Assembly (NCBI GenBank): GCA_964016885.1
Contig: OZ024755.1
Span: 28,706,001-28,770,000, forward strand
Source of the DNA: Eledone cirrhosa
Taxonomy: Eukaryota
Direction: 5' to 3'
Length of the DNA stretch: 64,000 nt
The position numbers and the translations under genes were made by a program. Of this stretch, positions 6,534-59,029 are shown one piece after another (position 1 is the first letter of the stretch; every line of letters starts with the position of its first letter). The notes under the pieces are model-generated. The model made no database searches. It was given only the letters and a program-made list of their open reading frames with translations, and was not told the origin of the DNA.

Positions 6534-7253
<720 letters not shown>

Positions 7254-7255
<2 letters not shown>

Positions 7256-7757
7256 CGTTTCTGAATTTGTTTAGCAAGATTCTTTATCTGAAAACGTGTG
7301 TTGAAACCGATATTGTTATGCTTTGGGACATGACAGCAACATCACAACTTTCAATTAAGGACAAAATGAAAACACACACACACATAGAACAAACGACCAA
7401 CCAGTAACATGTAAATAAACAAACAAATAAACAAATATAAACACACACAGATACCCGGATGTAACACATGCGCAAACTAAGCGCACAGCACACACACAAA
7501 CAAGATGGCGTAGGATAGAACAAAGGAGAGGCACAAAAACAAAGAAAAGAATCCCCAGTCACTGAAGAGGTCACAGAATGTGTGACGAAAGAACTTTGAC
7601 AACCAGAAGATTGTTCAATCGTCAGGTTGTGGAACCAACCAACCAACCGGAAATCTATAAATTCCTAAATTTATAAATTTAATTTATAATAAATTGAAGT
7701 GAAACTACTTGTGCGTGTGTTTCTTATTGGCAACATGACCCTCCCAAAGCATAACTA
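7254..7757. mobile_element. PLE terminal remnant, sister subfamily of the intact PLE
   Basis: Minus strand 7254-7328 translates PKHNNIGFNTRFQIKNLAKQIQKR, versus PKYNNICFDTRFHIKNLAKLIHRR in the intact ORF. The plus strand ends ATGACCCTCCCAAAGCATAAC-(TA)n. Confidence 0.85.
7558..7600 (+). ncRNA. Minimal type I hammerhead-like motif
   Basis: GTCA-CTGAAGA-G-GTCACA(GAATG)TGTGAC-GAAA-GAAC-TT-TGAC: stem I 4 bp, stem II 6 bp, 1-bp stem III. Confidence 0.6.
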
Positions 7758-7974
7758 TATATATATATAAATATATATATAATTATACATATTAGTGTGT
7801 GTGTGCGTATGTGTGTGTCCTCAGTGTCAATGAGAGAAAGAGAGGAGGAGATTGGTGATGATCATTCTCGAGACTCATAAAATGGGGTATGATAGGAAAT
7901 GTACATTACTTCGAAATTCTATAGATGTTTGCCCACTACGTGGAAATGGGTTCCCAAGAGTGTAATTATTCTTC

Positions 7975-9636: not shown

Positions 9637-9859
9637 TTCCAGAAGATCCCGCTACAGGGAGAAAGTAGAAACTGTTTGCATTAACTTTTAGTCTGTGCTA
9701 ATATAAATATATTTAATATAGAAATAGCGGGAGAAATCATCAGGAAGTCGACTCTCCAAGTAATATGGTGGTATTTATACCTTTTCTGGTCGTAAGAGAG
9801 GGCAGTGTTTGAGATGAGTGGAGGTCATTGGTTGATGGATTTAATATATATATATATAT

Positions 9860-10055
9860 CAGGTATGGTGTGGTAAAAGCCAGCTAGACGATAACCCACC
9901 AGAGAACTCGATACTTGGGGCAGTAGAGTGGGTAATATGAAAAGATTCAGGACCCCGATGCACGAGCTTCGGATGTTTCGTCAGCTAGATTCGAACAGTT
10001 CAGATCTAGCTGTCGAAACGGCCAGAGTTCAGCCGTTGGGGTCCTGAATTTTCAT
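9860..10055 (-). mobile_element. Fold-back module (GACCCCGACGGC family)
   Basis: Imperfect hairpin 9938-10055 plus a tail matching the rc of ...ATTACCCACTCTACT...TTACCACA. Flanked by (TA)n. Confidence 0.7.
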
Positions 10056-10182
10056 ATATATATATATAAAGAAGAAACAGGGGCTGTGTAGTGGATAAGG
10101 TGTACTTATAAATGAGACGAAAGCACGAACGGGAGAACATTTTCCTTCATCAGTTGTCTGCTAGGGACCATGGATATTTCGA

Positions 10183-13729: not shown

Positions 13730-13787
13730 CTTTATGCTCTGATGAGTCCCACTTATAGTGCGGATGAAACAATGTTAGCAAGTAAAG
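13730..13787 (+). ncRNA. Minimal type I hammerhead ribozyme motif
   Basis: CTTTA-TGCT-CTGATGA-GTCC(CACTTATAGTGC)GGAT-GAAA-CAATG-TT-AGCA-AG-TAAAG: canonical core with bulged stem I, ~35 nt upstream of a long (TA)n. Confidence 0.72.
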
Positions 13788-23490: not shown

Positions 23491-23524
<34 letters not shown>

Positions 23525-23525
23525 T

Positions 23526-23712
23526 GAAAAGATTCAGGTCCCCGACGGCTGAGCTCCGGCCGTTTCAACGGTTAGATCCGAACTGAGTTGAAACGGCTGG
23601 ACCTCAGCCGTCGGGCTCCTGAATCTGCTCATATTACCCACTCTACTACCCAAGTATCGAGTACTACACTGCGTTATGGTCCACCTGGTATCTTACCAGA
23701 CCCTCCTTGTTA
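23526..23712 (+). mobile_element. Fold-back module (GACCCCGACGGC family)
   Basis: Hairpin AGATTCAGGTCCCCGACGGCTGAG...CTCAGCCGTCGGGCTCCTGAATCT plus tail ATTACCCACTCTACTACCC. Confidence 0.72.
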
Positions 23713-23788
23713 CATATGTGTGTGTGTGTGTGTGTGTGTGTGCTTGATACTTTGCTTGAAGCATTGTGGAACATGAAGAGTGGGTATT

Positions 23789-26658: not shown

Positions 26659-27302
26659 TTACTCTTTTACTCTTTTACCTGTTCCAGCCATCCGACTGAG
26701 GCCATGCTGGGGCACCGCCCTTGTTGCTACACATTTTATCTCCAGCCCGTATTGGTTGGCCAGTGGTGTAAGAGGGAGTTTGTTGCTGCTGCCCTTAGGT
26801 TTCCCTTGTGCCTTGCTGTGGGCTCATCCGGGATCCCGGATAGCAAGGTGTCGAGATGTTTCTTGAAGACATCCACCTCCACACCATGCATATCTCTCAG
26901 ATCCTTCGGCAGCTTGTTGACGAGTTGAGGGCCCATGAATCCCAGGCTATTGCAATATCTGCTCCTTATTCTAGATATGGGAGACGGGAGCTTTGGCACC
27001 ACACAGTGACGTCCAGTTCGAAGATTCGTCCAGCTCCCAATGCCAAAGTTTGGTGGTAGTCCCTCCAGGATTTTCCACATGTAGATCACTGCGTATCTCT
27101 CCCGTCTTCGTTCCAGGGAGTAGAGGTTCAGTTCTTTTAGCCTCTCCCAGTAGCTTGTCTCCTTCATCGTGGCAATCCTCTTGGTGTAGCTTCGCTGGAT
27201 TGCCTCGAGTTCCGTGGTTAGTTTGACACTATGGGGTGACCACAAATTAGAGCAATAGTCCAGGCGGTTTAGGACAAATGTCTTCCATGGTGTCTCGGTT
27301 CA
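26659..27302 (-). pseudogene. CR1-clade LINE 3' fragment with 3' UTR and tail
   Basis: Translates RLDYCS*LWSP...LEAIQRSYTKRI...SYWERLKELNLYSLERRRERY. The 3' end GGCGGTGCCCCAGCATGGCC...AAAAGAGTAA recurs in part at 36350-36402 and 62256-62296. Confidence 0.88.
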
Positions 27303-27332: not shown

Positions 27333-27499
27333 AGGAAAAAGTATGACCCCGACGGCAGAGCTCAAGCCGTTTCGATGAAACAGCTTGAGCTCTGCCGTCG
27401 GGGGTCTTACTTTTTGGTATTTCCCACTCTACTACTCTAAGTATTAAGCACTCTGGTGCGTTATGGTCCATCTGGTTCCTTACCACATTTCCTTTGTTA
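27333..27499 (+). mobile_element. Fold-back module (GACCCCGACGGC family)
   Basis: GACCCCGACGGCAGAGCTCAAGCCGTTTC/GAAACAGCTTGAGCTCTGCCGTCGGGGGTC hairpin plus the family tail, between (TA)n tracts. Confidence 0.75.
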
Positions 27500-27613
27500 T
27501 ATATATATATATATATATTGTTATATTTGGGGAGGGTCATATTTGCGTAATATTGCCAGAATTAATAACAGAACACACTCACTGTTTGGTTGGTTTTCGC
27601 TTCTCGCTGTCTT

Positions 27614-28796
27614 TAGACATAAGATAGGGAAGGCCACATCATGGTACGACAACCAGAGATATCAGAGTGTCATGTTTGTGGACGCCACCCCTGGAGGGAA
27701 ATTAGCTAACCAGTGTAGAAAGGCCCTGAGAAAGACCCACTTAAAAATAAAGGTGGTAGAAAAGCCAGGAACCACCATAAAATCCCTGATCAGCAAAACC
27801 TACCCTTTTAAGAAAACCCACTGTACCAATAGGAAATGTATCATATGTAAGGTGAACCCCCGGATAAACTGTAAAACTAGAAACGTAGTCTATAGCATAA
27901 GATGTACAGAGGGTACTTGCAGAAACACGACAACAACATACATAGGTGAGACAGCTCGTAGCATAGGTGAAAGGATAGACCAACACTGGGGGGAACTAAA
28001 AGGACGAAAAAACGGGTCAGTACTATACGAACATGCTAGACAACATCATGACGGTAACATAGACAACATAGAAATTAGAATAATATCTAAACATAGGAAT
28101 GACCCAGCAGATAGGAAAATCAGAGAGGCCAGTGAAATAGAAATTAGAAGACCAAAGCTAAACAGAAAGAATGAGTGGAACAACAACAACACCCAAACAA
28201 ACAACACTGACCTAAGAGAAGTATAAATAAATAAGTAAATTAAATAAAATAAAATAAGATAAATAAATACATACACAAGCACATAAACACACACTAGTCA
28301 CCCAGCAGACACAACACTATACACACTAGTCACACATCACACACGCAAACGCATGCGCAAAGAAGACAAAATAAAATAAGATAAACAAACAAGCAAATAA
28401 ATAAATAAATATATAGACGGACTGAACAAAAAAAAAATGGCGTAGACATACAACACAACAGGAGGAACAATGAATATAACACCACTGACGATGTTGCAGA
28501 TGTGCAACGAAAGATTTATGTAAACTATATATATATGTGTTTGTCTATATTGTATCTGTATTATTTTATTTTTGACCGCCGGTCAGTCAATGGCAACATT
28601 GAGGACCGAGTAAGTTAGATCGCAGATATATATATATAAAAGACAGCGAGAAGCGAAAACCAACCAAACAGTGAGTGTGTTCTGTTATTAATTCTGGCAA
28701 TATTACGCAAATATGACCCTCCCCAAATATAACAATATCTGTTTCGACACACGATTTCATATAAAAAACCTCGCAAAACTAATTCATCGCCGCTAT
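27614..28796 (+). repeat. 5' pseudo-LTR / partial tandem copy of the PLE 3' end
   Basis: Matches 31739-32922 at offset 4125/4126; two substitutions and one poly-A length difference seen. Contains a duplicate GIY-YIG coding segment ending at 28226. Confidence 0.95.
28483..28520 (+). ncRNA. Minimal hammerhead-like motif in the 5' pLTR
   Basis: CA-CTGACGA-T-GTTGCA(GATG)TGCAAC-GAAA-GATT-TA-TG. Stem I is only 2 bp; AGAUUU is self-complementary with G-U pairs. Confidence 0.5.
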
Positions 28797-31700
28797 GGCA
28801 TTAGCTTGTGCCAAGCTGAAAGGTTATTGAAAGACACTGTTTTCTGTTATATAAAAACTACAATAACAACAGAACAAATCCGCTTCTTAAAACACTGTGT
28901 TTCCTCCAAAACATACACAACAAACATATCAAAACAAGTAAATAATTTATTATTGAACAAAACACAAGCTGAACGGCTAAAACACACAATAACAGTTAAT
29001 ATGAAAAGAACAACATACACAAAAGTCAACGCACTCTACAGACAAAAACGCATCAACGGTAAGGAAATCCGAAATCTCATCACAGCAAACGAGAGAGATG
29101 ACTTCATGAGCGTCATCCGACGCGAAACGAAATATGCTCAAAACGAATGCTGTAGGCATTTCAAGAAAAAATTAGAATGGATGAATAAGAAAAAACTACA
29201 AGAAAGGAAAATCGAATATTCTCAAAAATACCCAGATAACATCGACAACATCCGTATGAGTGATGTAAAACTACCGGAAGAATTTACCAATGACCACACA
29301 GTAAATATCTATGGGAACACTTTAATCAGTGAACAAGAACAACAAATCCTAAAGTTACCACCAAAATTTGCCATCTACAAAAAGATTAACCCTATGGAAT
29401 GCAAAACTGAACTGGAAAAGTGTTTCACAAAAATACGTTGGAATGCAAAGGTAAACAACAACAACAATAATAACGGTAGTAGTAATATAAACAATAACTC
29501 TGGGTATAGAAATAACAGCCATAACCATAACAATGGCAGGAAAGTGAGAAATAGTGATAATGGTAATAATACTAGCGATAGACAGAACAACAACAACCAC
29601 AATAATAATAATAATAGAAACGTTAACCACAGACACAGCAACAGTGACCACAGTAGTAATAACGGTAACAATACGAACAACAACAACAACAATAACCACA
29701 GTGGTAATAATGGAAATGGAAATAGTACATGTAGCAACATCAACAAAAACAAGAAGCATAATAATAGTAACAACCACAATGGTAGAAATAGCAGTAACAA
29801 CAACAACAATAACGGTGAAGTAAACAACAATACATCTAGCAATCATAACAATAATAATATTAAAGCTAATGATAGAAACAACAACAACCACCATGATAAT
29901 AATAATAGCAACACACACAACTATGACGATAGAAATAACGACAACCCCTTAGAGAAACTATTTTTCAACCCAGCTGACAAAACATATAAGATGGGTAATA
30001 TCTATCCTACGAGGTTACCCTTTAATAAAAGAGTTTGCATACCACAACAAATAGATGACGAGACGGAGGCACAGTTCACCATAGCTAGAAATAAGATTAG
30101 ACAAGTAGTAGACAGGTACACTATGAGACAGAGCAGACCAGAGGCCCAACAACTTGGGATAAAACCTGTAGAAGGCTTGGTTAGCCTCAAGCAGCGCACA
30201 AGGGATGGTGAGGTAGTGTGTCTACCCACAGATAAGTCTGGTAGGATGTCAATAGATAGCATGCCGAACTACATCGAGGCAATGCAACCCCACATCACCA
30301 ACACGAGCGAAGTTGCACAACTAACACACGATGGGAGAGAAAAAATCCTCAACGCTCACATGATGATGTGGACTGACATCCTAAAGCCAAGCAGACGCAC
30401 TGCCAACAACTTCCAGGCGTCTAACAATGGCATACCACCCTTGTATGGGCTCCGCAAAGACCACAAGACAGTCGACGACCCGACAACAGGACCACCAACA
30501 AGACCTGTATGCGGAGCTAATATAGCTAGCAACTACAGGATCTCCTACTTCCTCTCAATGGTTATACGCCCCATAATCAAGATGTCCCCAGATGTATGTG
30601 AAAGTACAGAGGACCTCCTCAGCAGAATCAGTGAGTGCAACAAAAACAGGAGCCTATCCAACTGCATAATAGGCAGCATGGATGTGGTGTCACTGTACCC
30701 ATCCATTAACATTGATTTTGCTGTGAAAAGATGTGTGGAGATGATCATTGAGAGTGAGGTGGAGTTCTGCGACGTCGACACAGACGAACTGGGCCTCCTA
30801 CTTAGACTTACCTACGACACTGACTACCTAGACAGCCATGACCTTAGATGTTTCTGCCCTAGTAGACCTATAAGAGGTAGACCCCCCACCATAACCTCAA
30901 TGGCTAAAAAGACTCCCATAGGAAGGTGGATTGGGTGGACCAAAGCTATACGGACCCCCCAAAACACTGATCAGGTAAGAAAAATGGTCGCACATGCAAT
31001 AGGGGCTAGTATCAAAACTACCCTAAAGGGCCACATATTTAAGTTCAATGAGAAAATCTACACCCAAAATGAGGGAGCAGCCATCGGCGTCAGCATAGCT
31101 GGCGATGTTGCCAACCTTTTCATGGTATGGTGGGAAAGGAGACTTAAAGATCTCCTTAATGAAAGCTCCATAGACCTCATCATGTACTCTCGTTATGTAG
31201 ACGATATCAATATAGTTATAAGAACACCCCCACTAGAGAGCACTAACAAGTTTGATTTAGAACGTGGCACGATGGAAAGCATCCAGCAGATAGCTAATTC
31301 CATACACCAGAGTATAACTGTAACTATAGACTTCCCTTCCAAACACCCTAACAATAGACTACCTGTATTAGACACAGAACTCTGGATTAACACTATAGAC
31401 GAGAGAGCCCAAATTCTCCACTCACACTATGCTAAACCCATGGCCTCCAAATACCTGATACTCAAAAACTCAGCAATGTCCAGTAGTGCTAAGTTTAATA
31501 TTCTGATCGCAGATTTGGTACGAGTGATGAAGAATGTGTCCAGCATGTGCGACCCAACAGAAATGGAAGGACACATCCAACACTTCATCAACCGCATGCA
31601 GTTCTCTGGCTACAACCAAAGAGACAGAGTCAGAGTATACGAAGGAGCCATGGAAAAGTATAAGACCCTCATAGAACTGGACATGAAAGGAATTTGCCCA

Positions 31701-32351
31701 CTATACAGGAGCAAATCATGGAATAGCTTAGATAGGGCTAGACATAAGATAGGGAAGGCCACATCATGGTACGACAACCAGAGATATCAGAGTGTCATGT
31801 TTGTGGACGCCACCCCTGGAGGGAAATTAGCTAACCAGTGTAGAAAGGCCCTGAGAAAGACCCACTTAAAAATAAAGGTGGTAGAAAAGCCAGGAACCAC
31901 CATAAAATCCCTGATCAGCAAAACCTACCCTTTTAAGAAAACCCACTGTACCAATAGGAAATGTATCATATGTAAGGTGAACCCCCGGATAAACTGTAAA
32001 ACTAGAAACGTAGTCTATAGCATAAGATGTACAGAGGGTACTTGCAGAAACACGACAACAACATACATAGGTGAGACAGCTCGTAGCATAGGTGAAAGGA
32101 TAGACCAACACTGGGGGGAACTAAAAGGACGAAAAAACGGGTCAGTACTATACGAACATGCTAGACAACATCATGACGGTAACATAGACAACATAGAAAT
32201 TAGAATAATATCTAAACATAGGAATGACCCAGCAGATAGGCAAATCAGAGAGGCCAGTGAAATAGAAATTAGAAGACCAAAGCTAAACAGAAAGAATGAG
32301 TGGAACAACAACAACACCCAAACAAACAACACTGACCTAAGAGAAGTATAA
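28713..32351 (+). CDS. Penelope-like retroelement protein: reverse transcriptase + GIY-YIG endonuclease (1212 aa)
   Basis: RT motifs TDKSG, LYGLRKDHK, RPVC, SMDVVSLYPSI, QNEGAAIG, YSRYVDDI and LPVLD; Cys linker CTNRKCIIC; endonuclease NVVYSIRC...C...YIGETAR...ERIDQH...EH...E...I...PKLNRK. No internal stops. Confidence 0.96.
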   Translation: MTLPKYNNICFDTRFHIKNLAKLIHRRYGISLCQAERLLKDTVFCYIKTTITTEQIRFLKHCVSSKTYTTNISKQVNNLLLNKTQAERLKHTITVNMKRTTYTKVNALYRQKRINGKEIRNLITANERDDFMSVIRRETKYAQNECCRHFKKKLEWMNKKKLQERKIEYSQKYPDNIDNIRMSDVKLPEEFTNDHTVNIYGNTLISEQEQQILKLPPKFAIYKKINPMECKTELEKCFTKIRWNAKVNNNNNNNGSSNINNNSGYRNNSHNHNNGRKVRNSDNGNNTSDRQNNNNHNNNNNRNVNHRHSNSDHSSNNGNNTNNNNNNNHSGNNGNGNSTCSNINKNKKHNNSNNHNGRNSSNNNNNNGEVNNNTSSNHNNNNIKANDRNNNNHHDNNNSNTHNYDDRNNDNPLEKLFFNPADKTYKMGNIYPTRLPFNKRVCIPQQIDDETEAQFTIARNKIRQVVDRYTMRQSRPEAQQLGIKPVEGLVSLKQRTRDGEVVCLPTDKSGRMSIDSMPNYIEAMQPHITNTSEVAQLTHDGREKILNAHMMMWTDILKPSRRTANNFQASNNGIPPLYGLRKDHKTVDDPTTGPPTRPVCGANIASNYRISYFLSMVIRPIIKMSPDVCESTEDLLSRISECNKNRSLSNCIIGSMDVVSLYPSINIDFAVKRCVEMIIESEVEFCDVDTDELGLLLRLTYDTDYLDSHDLRCFCPSRPIRGRPPTITSMAKKTPIGRWIGWTKAIRTPQNTDQVRKMVAHAIGASIKTTLKGHIFKFNEKIYTQNEGAAIGVSIAGDVANLFMVWWERRLKDLLNESSIDLIMYSRYVDDINIVIRTPPLESTNKFDLERGTMESIQQIANSIHQSITVTIDFPSKHPNNRLPVLDTELWINTIDERAQILHSHYAKPMASKYLILKNSAMSSSAKFNILIADLVRVMKNVSSMCDPTEMEGHIQHFINRMQFSGYNQRDRVRVYEGAMEKYKTLIELDMKGICPLYRSKSWNSLDRARHKIGKATSWYDNQRYQSVMFVDATPGGKLANQCRKALRKTHLKIKVVEKPGTTIKSLISKTYPFKKTHCTNRKCIICKVNPRINCKTRNVVYSIRCTEGTCRNTTTTYIGETARSIGERIDQHWGELKGRKNGSVLYEHARQHHDGNIDNIEIRIISKHRNDPADRQIREASEIEIRRPKLNRKNEWNNNNTQTNNTDLREV

Positions 32352-32919
32352 ATAAATAAGTAAATTAAATTAAATAAAATAAGATAAATAAATACATACA
32401 CAAGCACATAAACACACACTAGTCACCCAGCAGACACAACACTATACACACTAGTCACACATCACACACGCAAACGCATGCGCAAAGAAGACAAAATAAA
32501 ATAAGATAAACAAACAAGCAAATAAATAAATAAATATATAGACGGACTGAACAAAAAAAAAAATGGCGTAGACATACAACACAACAGGAGGAACAATGAA
32601 TATAACACCACTGACGATGTTGCAGATGTGCAACGAAAGATTTATGTAAACTATATATATATGTGTTTGTCTATATTGTATCTGTATTATTTTATTTTTG
32701 ACCGCCGGTCAGTCAATGGCAACATTGAGGACCGAGTAAGTTAGATCGCAGATATATATATATAAAAGACAGCGAGAAGCGAAAACCAACCAAACAGTGA
32801 GTGTGTTCTGTTATTAATTCTGGCAATATTACGCAAATATGACCCTCCCCAAATATAACAATATCTGTTTCGACACACGATTTCATATAAAAAACCTCGC
32901 AAAACTAATTCATCGCCGC

Positions 32920-32922
<3 letters not shown>
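31739..32922 (+). repeat. 3' pseudo-LTR including a tail that re-enters the first ~28 codons
   Basis: The ATG is repeated at 32839 and the copy ends at AATTCATCGCCGCT-(AT)n. Confidence 0.95.
32609..32646 (+). ncRNA. Minimal hammerhead-like motif in the 3' pLTR
   Basis: Identical to the motif at 28483-28520. Confidence 0.5.
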
Positions 32923-32954
<32 letters not shown>

Positions 32955-32962
32955 TTATATAT

Positions 32963-33083
32963 CTGAGAGGATGTGGTAAGATACCATGTGGACCATAACC
33001 CACCAGAGTACTCGATTCATAGGGTAGTAGAGTTTGGATCTAGCTGTCGAAACGGCCGGAGCTCAGCCATCGGGGACTTGACT

Positions 33084-33088
<5 letters not shown>
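32963..33088 (-). mobile_element. Partial fold-back module (GACCCCGACGGC family)
   Basis: Reverse-complement tail ATGTGGTAAGATACCA..GGACCATAAC joined to GTCGAAACGGCCGGAGCTCAGCCATCGGGG. Confidence 0.65.
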
Positions 33089-50213: not shown

Positions 50214-50641
<428 letters not shown>

Positions 50642-50663
50642 TATATATATATATATATATATA

Positions 50664-51118
<455 letters not shown>

Positions 51119-55181: not shown

Positions 55182-55357
55182 AATGGCGTAGGCATCAGAA
55201 TACAACGGGTGTAAACATAAAAGTACCACTGATGATGTCGTAGATGTGTTACGAAAGAACTTTAATAGACTATATATATATATATAAATATATATATATA
55301 TTGTTATAGGTAGTCCATTTAGATGTAGTCCAGTCAAGGTGCTCCGAGAAGTGGATT

Positions 55358-55392
<35 letters not shown>

Positions 55393-55566
55393 TTATATCT
55401 GTATTGTTAACCGTTGGTAAATCAATGATAAACATTGATTGCCAAATAAATTATCTATGGAGATATAAAAGATACAGAAGCGAAAACCAACCCAAACCAA
55501 ACAGTGTTTGTGTACTGTTATTATTTCTGACAATATTATAACAATATGACCCTCTCCAAGTATAAC
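55182..55566 (+). mobile_element. Diverged pLTR of the intact PLE's lineage
   Basis: AATGGCGTAG, CCACTGATGATGTCGTAGATGTGTTACGAAAGA, GAAGCGAAAACCAAC and ATGACCCTCTCCAAGTATAAC occur in the same order as in 28436-28733. It is interrupted by TA-flanked sequence. Confidence 0.8.
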
Positions 55567-55977
55567 GATGCGGATTTTTACTAATTTAAATTATTCTCGT
55601 GATAGAGATTGATTTCACTTTATCTGTTGGCATAAATATTTTCTCGTCACAATTTTCACTAGGACTATTATTTATTACAATCCAAGTTTTACATAGAAGT
55701 ATCTCTCCACAAAATATATAGCGAACTTATCAACTTTATCAGTAACGTCATATGTTTCTGTCCAACATTCTTGAAAATTTCGTCAACATCCTTTTAATAA
55801 TTTATTATCACATTTTATTTATACTTTTCCTTTCTTTTTTTTATGATTGATAACATAATATTCTCCAGAAAATTAGGAAAGAACTGTAAAATATTAAATT
55901 TAATATCATGCCATTGTCATATAATATTTGGATGCGCAAGTGACCAATTATTAATTTCTTAATTCGATAATCTTTAA

Positions 55978-57374: not shown

Positions 57375-57378
<4 letters not shown>

Positions 57379-57564
57379 AACCAGTAAGACCCCGACGGCT
57401 GAGCTCAAGCCGTTTCGACGGCTAATTCAGTCCAGAATTAGTCGTCGAAACGGCTTGAGCTCAGCCGTCGGGGTCTTACTGGTTCCTATTACCCACTCTA
57501 CTACCCTAAGTATTGAGTACTTTGGTGCGTTATGGTCCACCTGGTTCCTTACCACATTTCCTTC

Positions 57565-57570
<6 letters not shown>
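57375..57570 (+). mobile_element. Fold-back module (GACCCCGACGGC family), best-preserved copy
   Basis: Arms 57375-57428 and 57435-57488 with a 6-nt spacer, then a ~80-nt tail; (TA)n on both sides. Confidence 0.8.
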
Positions 57571-58174: not shown

Positions 58175-59029
58175 TTATTGTTCGTTAGGCTTGGGTTGGA
58201 ATTTACCAATACAATTCTCTTCTTTAATTGTTCTCATGATTTCACTTGGGCTGTGTAGTTTGTAGAATGGAAATATTATAAATATTTTCTGACCACCTCT
58301 TGCTATATGTTTACTCAGGGGTATCTGACGGACATTTGGGTCTCTGATTTGCTGTCGGTGCACCCGTGCACATTCCGATGGTGCATTTCCAGTTTGACCG
58401 ACATATAGTTCTTCATAATTCGGGCATTTAATGCAGTAAATTAGATTTCTGCTTTTGCATTTCGTATTTGCATTTGGGAATATTTTTCGAGTTTTCGTGT
58501 TCACATATTGACCAGTATGTATGAACTGACATGTGCCACATCGACTATCATTGCATTTAGATACAGTGAATGATTGGTCTTTGTTGTTAAGATCAAACTT
58601 TGCCTTTGTTAGTAATTGCTTCAAATTTTGGGGCTGTCTTTTACTAAGAATCAAAGCTCGGTCTGTGATTAAACCTTTTAATTCATTACTTTGAGCAATG
58701 ATCGGTAGGTTTGCTTTGGCAGTGTTGAAGATATTCTGGTGACATGGGTTATGTGTCATTATAAATGGTGTGACCAGTCCTTGGTTTCTTCTTCCTTGGG
58801 TTGTCCTAAATTGTTGTATAGGTATTTTTATAGCCCGCTGTATGCCATTTTCTATAAGTAGAGATGGGTATTTTTGTTTGAGCAAAAATTCTCTCAGTTC
58901 TGTTAGGCGTTTGTTCCTGGTATTCGTATCTTCTACAATGGTACAAATTGTTTTGGCTAGGTAGTATGGGATGTTGCGTTTTGTATGAGGTGGATGGCAC
59001 GGCTTAAAATTCAGATACTGATGGGTCTC

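Follow-up and report, generated by a model that had tools for sequence, protein, structure and literature searches.

We analysed a 64-kb window of the Eledone cirrhosa genome (contig OZ024755.1, positions 28,706,001 to 28,770,000). The window contains a Penelope-like element (PLE) set in a TA microsatellite. The protein encoded has a reverse transcriptase (RT) followed, at the C-terminus, by a GIY-YIG endonuclease (EN). We consider it probable that this is an intact, and likely recent, C-terminal-EN PLE from a separate, possibly unnamed, branch. The branch has a conserved insertion of ~70 residues in the RT fingers, at the position of telomerase's IFD (insertion in fingers domain). Coordinates count from the first base of the window and the features of the element are as follows.

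27498-27517: left flank, (TA)10; last 3-4 bases common to the element end (read from the sequence)
27515-27614, minus strand: inverted 100-bp piece of the pseudo-long terminal repeat (pLTR), 100% complementary to 28639-28738 and 32765-32864
27614-28796, plus strand: 5' pLTR, from alignment with the 3' pLTR
28485-28518, plus strand: putative minimal hammerhead core, 5' copy, identical to the 3' copy
28713-32351, plus strand: single open reading frame (ORF) of 1212 amino acids, unbroken from ATG (28713) to TAA (32351)
29454-29948, plus strand: Asn-rich insert (50% Asn; amino acids 248-412), following an RW motif at a site of variable length
30681-31205, plus strand: RT core, with motif A Asp D657, B' GAAIG at 788 and YVDD at 828-831
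30753-30968, plus strand: RT fingers insertion of ~70 amino acids (about 681-752) at the telomerase IFD position; boundaries approximate
31739-32922, plus strand: 3' pLTR, from alignment with the 5' pLTR
31947-31997, plus strand: Cys linker C-x4-C-x2-C-x7-C (amino acids 1079-1095), with CTNRKCIIC at 1079
32004-32297, plus strand: GIY-YIG endonuclease with CCHH, from residue alignment and a fold match
32611-32644, plus strand: putative minimal hammerhead core, 3' copy; stem II present in computed folds
32865-32922, plus strand: tail of ~58 bp at the 3' end only; terminus near +81 to +84 in the ORF
32920-32962: right flank, interrupted (TA)n; first 3 bases common to the element (read from the sequence)

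New relative to a first-pass annotation of the locus are the putative hammerhead core, the insert rich in Asn, the 3' tail of ~58 bp and the insertion in the RT fingers. That annotation had described an unbroken frame of 1212 residues with YVDD, a CxxxxCxxC linker and GIY-YIG/CCHH motifs. All were located, though the 'GIY' reads VVY (1100-1102), with YIG at 1118. Briefly, the ORF consists of an N-terminal region, the RT, a thumb, the Cys linker and the GIY-YIG domain. A LINE or LTR element was rejected on this domain order and the lack of an integrase. The CCHH residues are C1106, C1111, H1149 and H1154; C1106, H1149 and H1154 are conserved in at least 90% of relatives and C1111 is present in the focal sequence. 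Endonuclease residues Y1102, Y1118, G1120, R1129, E1180 and N1192 are all present. Alignment with relatives indicates that the catalytic residues of the ORF are intact.

Sequence searches with the ORF returned little. Pfam gave no family on the whole ORF and none on the endonuclease alone. Once the Asn-rich N-terminus was removed, RVT_1 matched at E 2e-4, under the Pfam cut-off. A sequence search of the PDB found only bacterial RTs, at E 0.16-0.2. An AlphaFold2 (AF2) model of the ORF has a pLDDT of 92.5. Telomerases occupy rows 1-4 of the Foldseek search with this predicted structure and rows 1-6 of the VIA search (Z 13.9-14.7, root-mean-square deviation (rmsd) 3.5-9.8, 273-371 aligned). The predicted C-terminus matches I-TevI 1ln0_A (Z 11.3, rmsd 2.1, 88 aligned). 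As far as a predicted structure allows, the model confirms the RT and GIY-YIG domains.

The focal RT has 132 residues between the motif A Asp and the B' Gly. This spacing was 128-152 in 103 of 103 measurable proteins from our first search, the focal protein included (8 of 111 were dropped, motifs not found; one of these, P0110, looked shorter). It was 121-163 in all 73 measurable further representatives (71 of 144 were dropped, many being fragments). Taken over the group, 176 of 176 measurable members have a spacing of 121-163. For canonical-type PLE proteins, collected in searches that started from one Nematis-like and one Neptune-like protein, the range was 56-69 in 234 of 234 measurable cases (4 of 238 dropped). 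Hand counts from Fig. S1 of PMC8557442 gave 62 for Penelope, 64 for nematode Nematis and 61 for zebrafish Neptune. The count was 88 for Naiad and, among TERTs, 119 (human) and 153 (Tetrahymena). According to the same source (PMC8557442, Craig et al. 2021), canonical C-terminal-EN PLEs lack an IFD, sporadic Coprina cases excepted, and an IFD is reported for N-terminal-EN PLEs. The focal RT does not fit this canonical description, which has no fingers insertion between RT3(A) and RT4(B).

Residues E692, P716, R718, G722, P725 and W742 of the insertion are conserved. The pattern E, P-x-R-x3-G-x2-P, W is kept in 81-88% of 177 proteins. In the AF2 model the insertion is predicted to be folded (pLDDT 92-98), with a pair of short helices plus an extended loop region. 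Its position is that of the TERT IFD/TRAP and its length is similar; the fold searches gave no residue-level alignment between them. These searches had no row specific to the insertion, which is not evidence for a new fold. A separate single-sequence model of the fingers region reached a pLDDT of 36 and was not used. ESM Atlas held no family for the insert; the nearest clusters were unnamed, one being labelled Ctenophora from one member.

Phylogenetic trees were built with the fingers insertion removed, using FastTree (91 sequences) and IQ-TREE (42 sequences). Both put the insert-bearing group on its own long branch. In the unrooted IQ-TREE result, the split defining the group has an ultrafast bootstrap (UFBoot) value of 100 and a branch of about 1.6. 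Within the sampled sets, the group falls outside the Nematis-like (94), Neptune-like (100) and Poseidon-like (99) sequences. The first-pass annotation had narrowed the clade to Neptune or Nematis. Neither choice is supported; the ~70-residue insertion is absent from both and the RT lies outside both in the tree. An RT phylogeny, proposed there against Repbase/Dfam PLEs, was run against motif-labelled sets and gives this position.

Nematis is among the closest of the named clades. As depicted in Figs S1, S2 and S7 of PMC8557442, it shares with the focal element a C-terminal GIY-YIG with CCHH and a short C-x-CxxC-x7-C linker. The layout of pLTR, tandem and inverted pieces is also shared. The element could be a derived Nematis, or its sister, that gained the fingers insertion, with its families already in Repbase or Dfam as Nematis or Penelope. 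We regard this as quite possible but lean against it. The focal linker has the Nematis form, CxxC-x7-C, and the 7-residue gap recurs in 68 of 136 group members; CCHH is present and the group sits on the Nematis-like side of the unrooted tree. Furthermore, 30 recently active 'Penelope' families of Octopus vulgaris have been published with no clade given in the accessible text (PMC13282606). Conversely, motif B' is GG[AP]IG in the group (GAAIG in the focal RT, GGPIG in others) instead of GLAMG, and the spacing is 132 rather than 62-64. The group also differs in its ORFs of 1000-1200 residues and its separate long branch. Nematis-like sequences are monophyletic to its exclusion (UFBoot 94), in a tree that has just two nematode proteins, and the group's motifs are absent from the accessible PMC8557442 supplement, which holds few canonical sequences.

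A bolder reading than a separate branch is that of a large undescribed ninth PLE clade. This would span hundreds to thousands of clusters at 50% identity and combine a C-terminal GIY-YIG with a telomerase-length fingers insertion homologous to the TERT IFD. We think this unlikely as a whole. A search at E<1e-30 gave 4701 such clusters, possibly including fragments and some canonical PLEs. No C-terminal-EN PLE clade with a fingers insertion is described in the literature searched, Arkhipova 2006, Repbase and Dfam, which may already include such families, being outside that search. The accessible part of a 2026 preprint still counts eight PLE clades. The nearest named relative is an O. vulgaris protein (70% identity), and the named hosts of the group among the matches are O. 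vulgaris and, from a partial protein, Stylophora. Separately, P0089, an O. vulgaris 'dynein regulatory complex subunit 6-like' protein, starts with ~150 residues of the focal family RT at 74% identity. It is probably a gene-model fusion or an exonised insertion.

Other named clades were considered and rejected. Neptune shares the Cys linker, CCHH, microsatellite flanks and, putatively, the hammerhead. However, Neptune-type linkers have 24-26 residues after CxxC (89 of 117) where the focal linker has 7, so the CX2-5CxxC plus ~25-residue form is not found here; Neptune has no fingers insertion and, by linker-motif labels, the focal RT lies outside its set. Hydra, which includes octopus Hydra-1_Obim, shares RW, DK[ST] for DKG and KDHK in RT2 (compared by eye), together with (TA)n insertion. 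It differs in lacking CCHH and an IFD, in its GSYDG, YRDD and CxCx5C linker, and in its short (<3 kb) elements. Naiad/Chlamys and TERT share an insertion between RT motifs A and B', and TERT is the closest solved fold to the focal RT model. Yet the endonuclease of Naiad/Chlamys is N-terminal and that of the focal element C-terminal, while the Naiad insert is ~20 residues and the focal spacing TERT-sized. Penelope/Poseidon was rejected on the Cys linker between RT and EN.

We then turned to the ends of the element. The first-pass annotation reported direct repeats of ~1.18 kb with about three differences. Consistent with this, the pLTRs are 99.75% identical over 1184 alignment columns, with mismatches at 28116/32241 and 28246/32371 and one base of a poly-A run. 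The 5' pLTR is a 5'-truncated copy comprising the ORF C-terminus, the 3' UTR and ORF bases 1-84. The reported inverted piece of ~100 bp is an exact complement of pLTR sequence over 100 bases. Its terminus lies at about +22 to +26 of the ORF, with a 1-base overlap at the junction. The one-sided tail extends past the end of the inverted piece, spanning about +24 to +83 of the ORF. Tail length in PLEs is quoted as 30-40 bases (PMC8557442), against ~58 here. The TA flanks that had been noted are (TA)10 on the left and an interrupted TA run on the right, and each element end has 3-4 AT bases in common with the adjoining run. No target-site duplication is readable within the TA runs of the focal element. 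By its partial-tandem pLTRs, inverted 5' piece and one-sided tail, the element is an EN+ PLE, and the layout proposed earlier is borne out.

Each pLTR carries a putative hammerhead core. It has CUGACGA, one extra U, GAAA and a 6-bp stem II with G-C closure; stem III is near-palindromic and stem I is weak. The extra base after CUGANGA, the long G-C-closed stem II and the tiny near-palindromic stem III are traits of PLE hammerheads as given in PMC4209133. Rfam found no hammerhead nor other real family; its matches were TA-repeat artefacts under gathering scores. Hammerhead-like cores also occur at 13739-13770 and 6945-6967 of the window. The former precedes a long TA run by ~55 bases and could mark the end of another PLE.

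Three shorter relatives of the focal element occur in the window.

50397-50645: 88% identity over 242 bases; ends at the +24 site, with an inverted bit of the +83 end; TA on both sides
Near 7228-7770: same layout as the focal copy, with the +24 end inverted and the +83 end direct; TA on both sides
55182-55569: degraded; TA at one end only

Hence, two end sites are reused. Counting the focal copy, 7 of 8 ends and all 4 related insertions touch (TA)n, while 12% of window positions lie within 5 bases of (TA)4+. We also examined 14 metagenome loci, most without flank. Locus L003 passes into (TA)n some 21 bases past a downstream ATG. Direct repeats of 99-130 bases stand at the contig ends of L002, L004, L006 and L008, L001 has a 936-base direct repeat, and hammerhead cores lie in the 3' UTRs of L002 and L008. 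L001 (3-4901) is, in addition, a relative with an open frame of 1632 residues and a missing 5' end. Its N-terminal region has Thr/Ala/Ser/Asn tandem repeats around an Ulp1-like protease domain (Peptidase_C48, E 0.005, under the cut-off).

The pattern of flanks suggests that the element likely targets TA. Alternatively, the flanks may not be a chosen target; the genome could be TA-rich, with TA runs seeded or lengthened at the AT-ended termini of the element, either as it inserts or later. In line with TA growth, (TA)5+ makes up 8% of the window, both element ends finish in ATAT or TAT and neighbouring unrelated repeats likewise end in TA. Set against this are the 4 of 4 related insertions relative to background, the TA end of L003 and the TA preference reported for Naiad, Hydra and Neptune (PMC8557442). 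We judge TA growth an improbable explanation. Hence, of the TA preference claimed in the first-pass annotation, enrichment within the window stands, while targeting and TA growth at insertion are not separated.

The surroundings of the element hold further repeats. Short hairpin elements, each bounded by TA runs, lie at 27336-27497, 32963-33088, 57376-57568, 23498-23717 and 9835-10068. They have an 80-base palindrome (fold z -14) and an arm of ~90 bases. The focal element lies between two of them, which are oppositely oriented, and no long copy was found. The hairpins look like stump insertions of another PLE family; the site would therefore be a nest. At 58196-59029, on the minus strand, a broken Neptune-like PLE remnant with thumb and GIY-YIG (tblastn E 1e-24; Pfam GIY-YIG E 0.0015) adjoins a TA run. 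A long near-perfect palindrome at 50670-50960, bounded by TA runs, stands beside the relative at 50397-50645. The 187-aa frame at 26736-27299 (minus strand), with no Pfam match, resembles what we take to be the C-terminal end of a CR1/L2-type LINE ORF2.

The pLTRs give an age for the insertion. With two substitutions over 1183 bases and the rate that PMC13282606 implies, it comes to about 0.2 million years (95% range 0.03-0.85). Any RT errors would lower this figure. We compared 4 of 24 listed public sequencing runs with 28797-33085; no RNA run was listed as a match. Run X4 differed at 16 of 3062 bases over 8 listed contig pieces. For run X5 the figure was 14 of 2983 bases over 7 of the 8 listed pieces; we set aside the remaining one, an alternative 116-base stretch carrying 4 differences. 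With contigs about 99.5% identical in two runs, and pLTRs so alike, the earlier view of a young copy is upheld. Toward the 3' end, depth rises from 15 to about 80-110 in X4 and from about 6 to 33 over the listed pieces of X5; most copies are therefore 5'-truncated. Hence, the family is young and its copies mostly 5'-truncated. At four sites the two pLTRs carry the same allele where at least one run has a different main allele, consistent with one donor. In restriction-site-associated DNA (RAD) run X22, 7 of the 15 joints listed (of 225) join the body to opposite-strand 3' pLTR, as in the focal copy. X4 and X5 carry different organism labels; their shared contigs may come from closely related species, from mixed samples or from transfer. 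For O. vulgaris, recently active PLEs have been published (31 families, 336 recent insertions; clade not given in the accessible text of PMC13282606). A young PLE in an octopus is no surprise and, as a single insertion, this one is ordinary.

A working model for insertion is offered by PAc, a Poseidon element of Anolis carolinensis and the one full-length PLE studied in vitro (PMC11167929). There, both strands of AT-rich DNA are nicked and the tail is bounded by two internal RNA sites at which reverse transcription starts. The clade of PAc is another, and the focal tail is ~58 bases with sites near +24 and +83. From the anatomy of the element and the PAc study we infer the following scheme, including the targeting and the role of the insert. 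The ORF protein would bind element RNA near the pLTR-ORF junction, and its GIY-YIG domain would nick both strands of a (TA)n tract. Each freed 3' end could then prime cDNA at about +24 or +83, putatively the first and second RT start sites, perhaps aided by the 3-4-base AT match. On a tandem or circular template, the +83 product would copy one whole unit and continue 1.18 kb into another, which would yield the two near-identical pLTRs. The 5' pLTR starts about 870 bases upstream of the hammerhead and therefore a plain pLTR-to-pLTR transcript would be insufficient. The +24 product would stop after 100 bases and be joined head-to-head, which would account for the inverted piece and for the tail being at one end only. 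The Cys linker may help to choose TA, and the fingers insertion may contact the template-primer duplex or target DNA.

Several observations weigh against our interpretation of the element. The tree has no root. Its comparison sets were chosen and labelled from motifs rather than named references, and it was built without TERT, Athena, Coprina, Hydra, Naiad and Chlamys. The position of the group may have been influenced by long-branch effects. A split of the group and Nematis-like sequences from Neptune and Poseidon has a support of 96; a sister relation to Nematis is therefore allowed. Besides the weakness of stem I, the hammerhead region folds no better than shuffles (z about 0). One in-window relative has a non-TA end (55569), and PAc initiates at RNA sites that are not homologous to the cut DNA (PMC11167929). 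In the reads, right-flank sequences differ at four sites at nearly all depth; the focal locus itself was therefore not seen in those runs. The X22 pLTR joints are each single-start and could be library chimeras. The focal junction, 31739/32765, is not among the 15 of 225 joints listed, which speaks for an assembly artefact in the duplicated end or the inversion. This we consider very improbable, since 3 differences separate the pLTRs, other in-window relatives and reads show the same end geometry, and the layout is that published for PLEs (PMC8557442, PMC3846280).

Finally, 10 of 18 checked allele differences, relative to the main allele of at least one run, change an amino acid. The focal copy might thus be intact in frame but dead or silenced, by private substitutions, the Asn tract or host piRNA. 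The predominance of 5'-truncated copies in the family also fits such a fate. However, none of the changes is at an invariant column. Nor is the Asn tract private; contigs of runs X1, X4 and X5 reach into it, so it is a family trait. Its site spans 26-590 residues in 29 relatives (median 36) and 189 residues here, and the tract is likely tolerated low-complexity filler. Intact PLE ORFs with long in-frame Asn-rich inserts are known from Adineta vaga (PMC3846280). Those inserts, in the Penelope/Poseidon clade, have 460-554 residues with 25-30% Asn and lie between RT and thumb or EN, whereas the focal insert has 165 residues, 50% Asn, and lies upstream of the RT. The two are likely independent. 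Overall, we hold a dead or silenced copy to be conceivable and doubt it.

Telomerase has its sister group in the PLE RTs, and the two have been linked through the IFD. If there is indeed a widespread C-terminal-EN group whose conserved, folded insert is TERT-sized, this picture would change, whether the insert was kept from an ancestor or gained independently. Such a group would also account for RT scores under the Pfam cut-off and possible misses in annotation. Hence, the interest lies in the lineage and not in an intact young PLE alone. The focal copy, young, intact and with defined ends, is a system for microsatellite targeting, two-site initiation and IFD function. Should the ninth-clade reading prove true, it would be a ready substrate to test the IFD outside telomerase.

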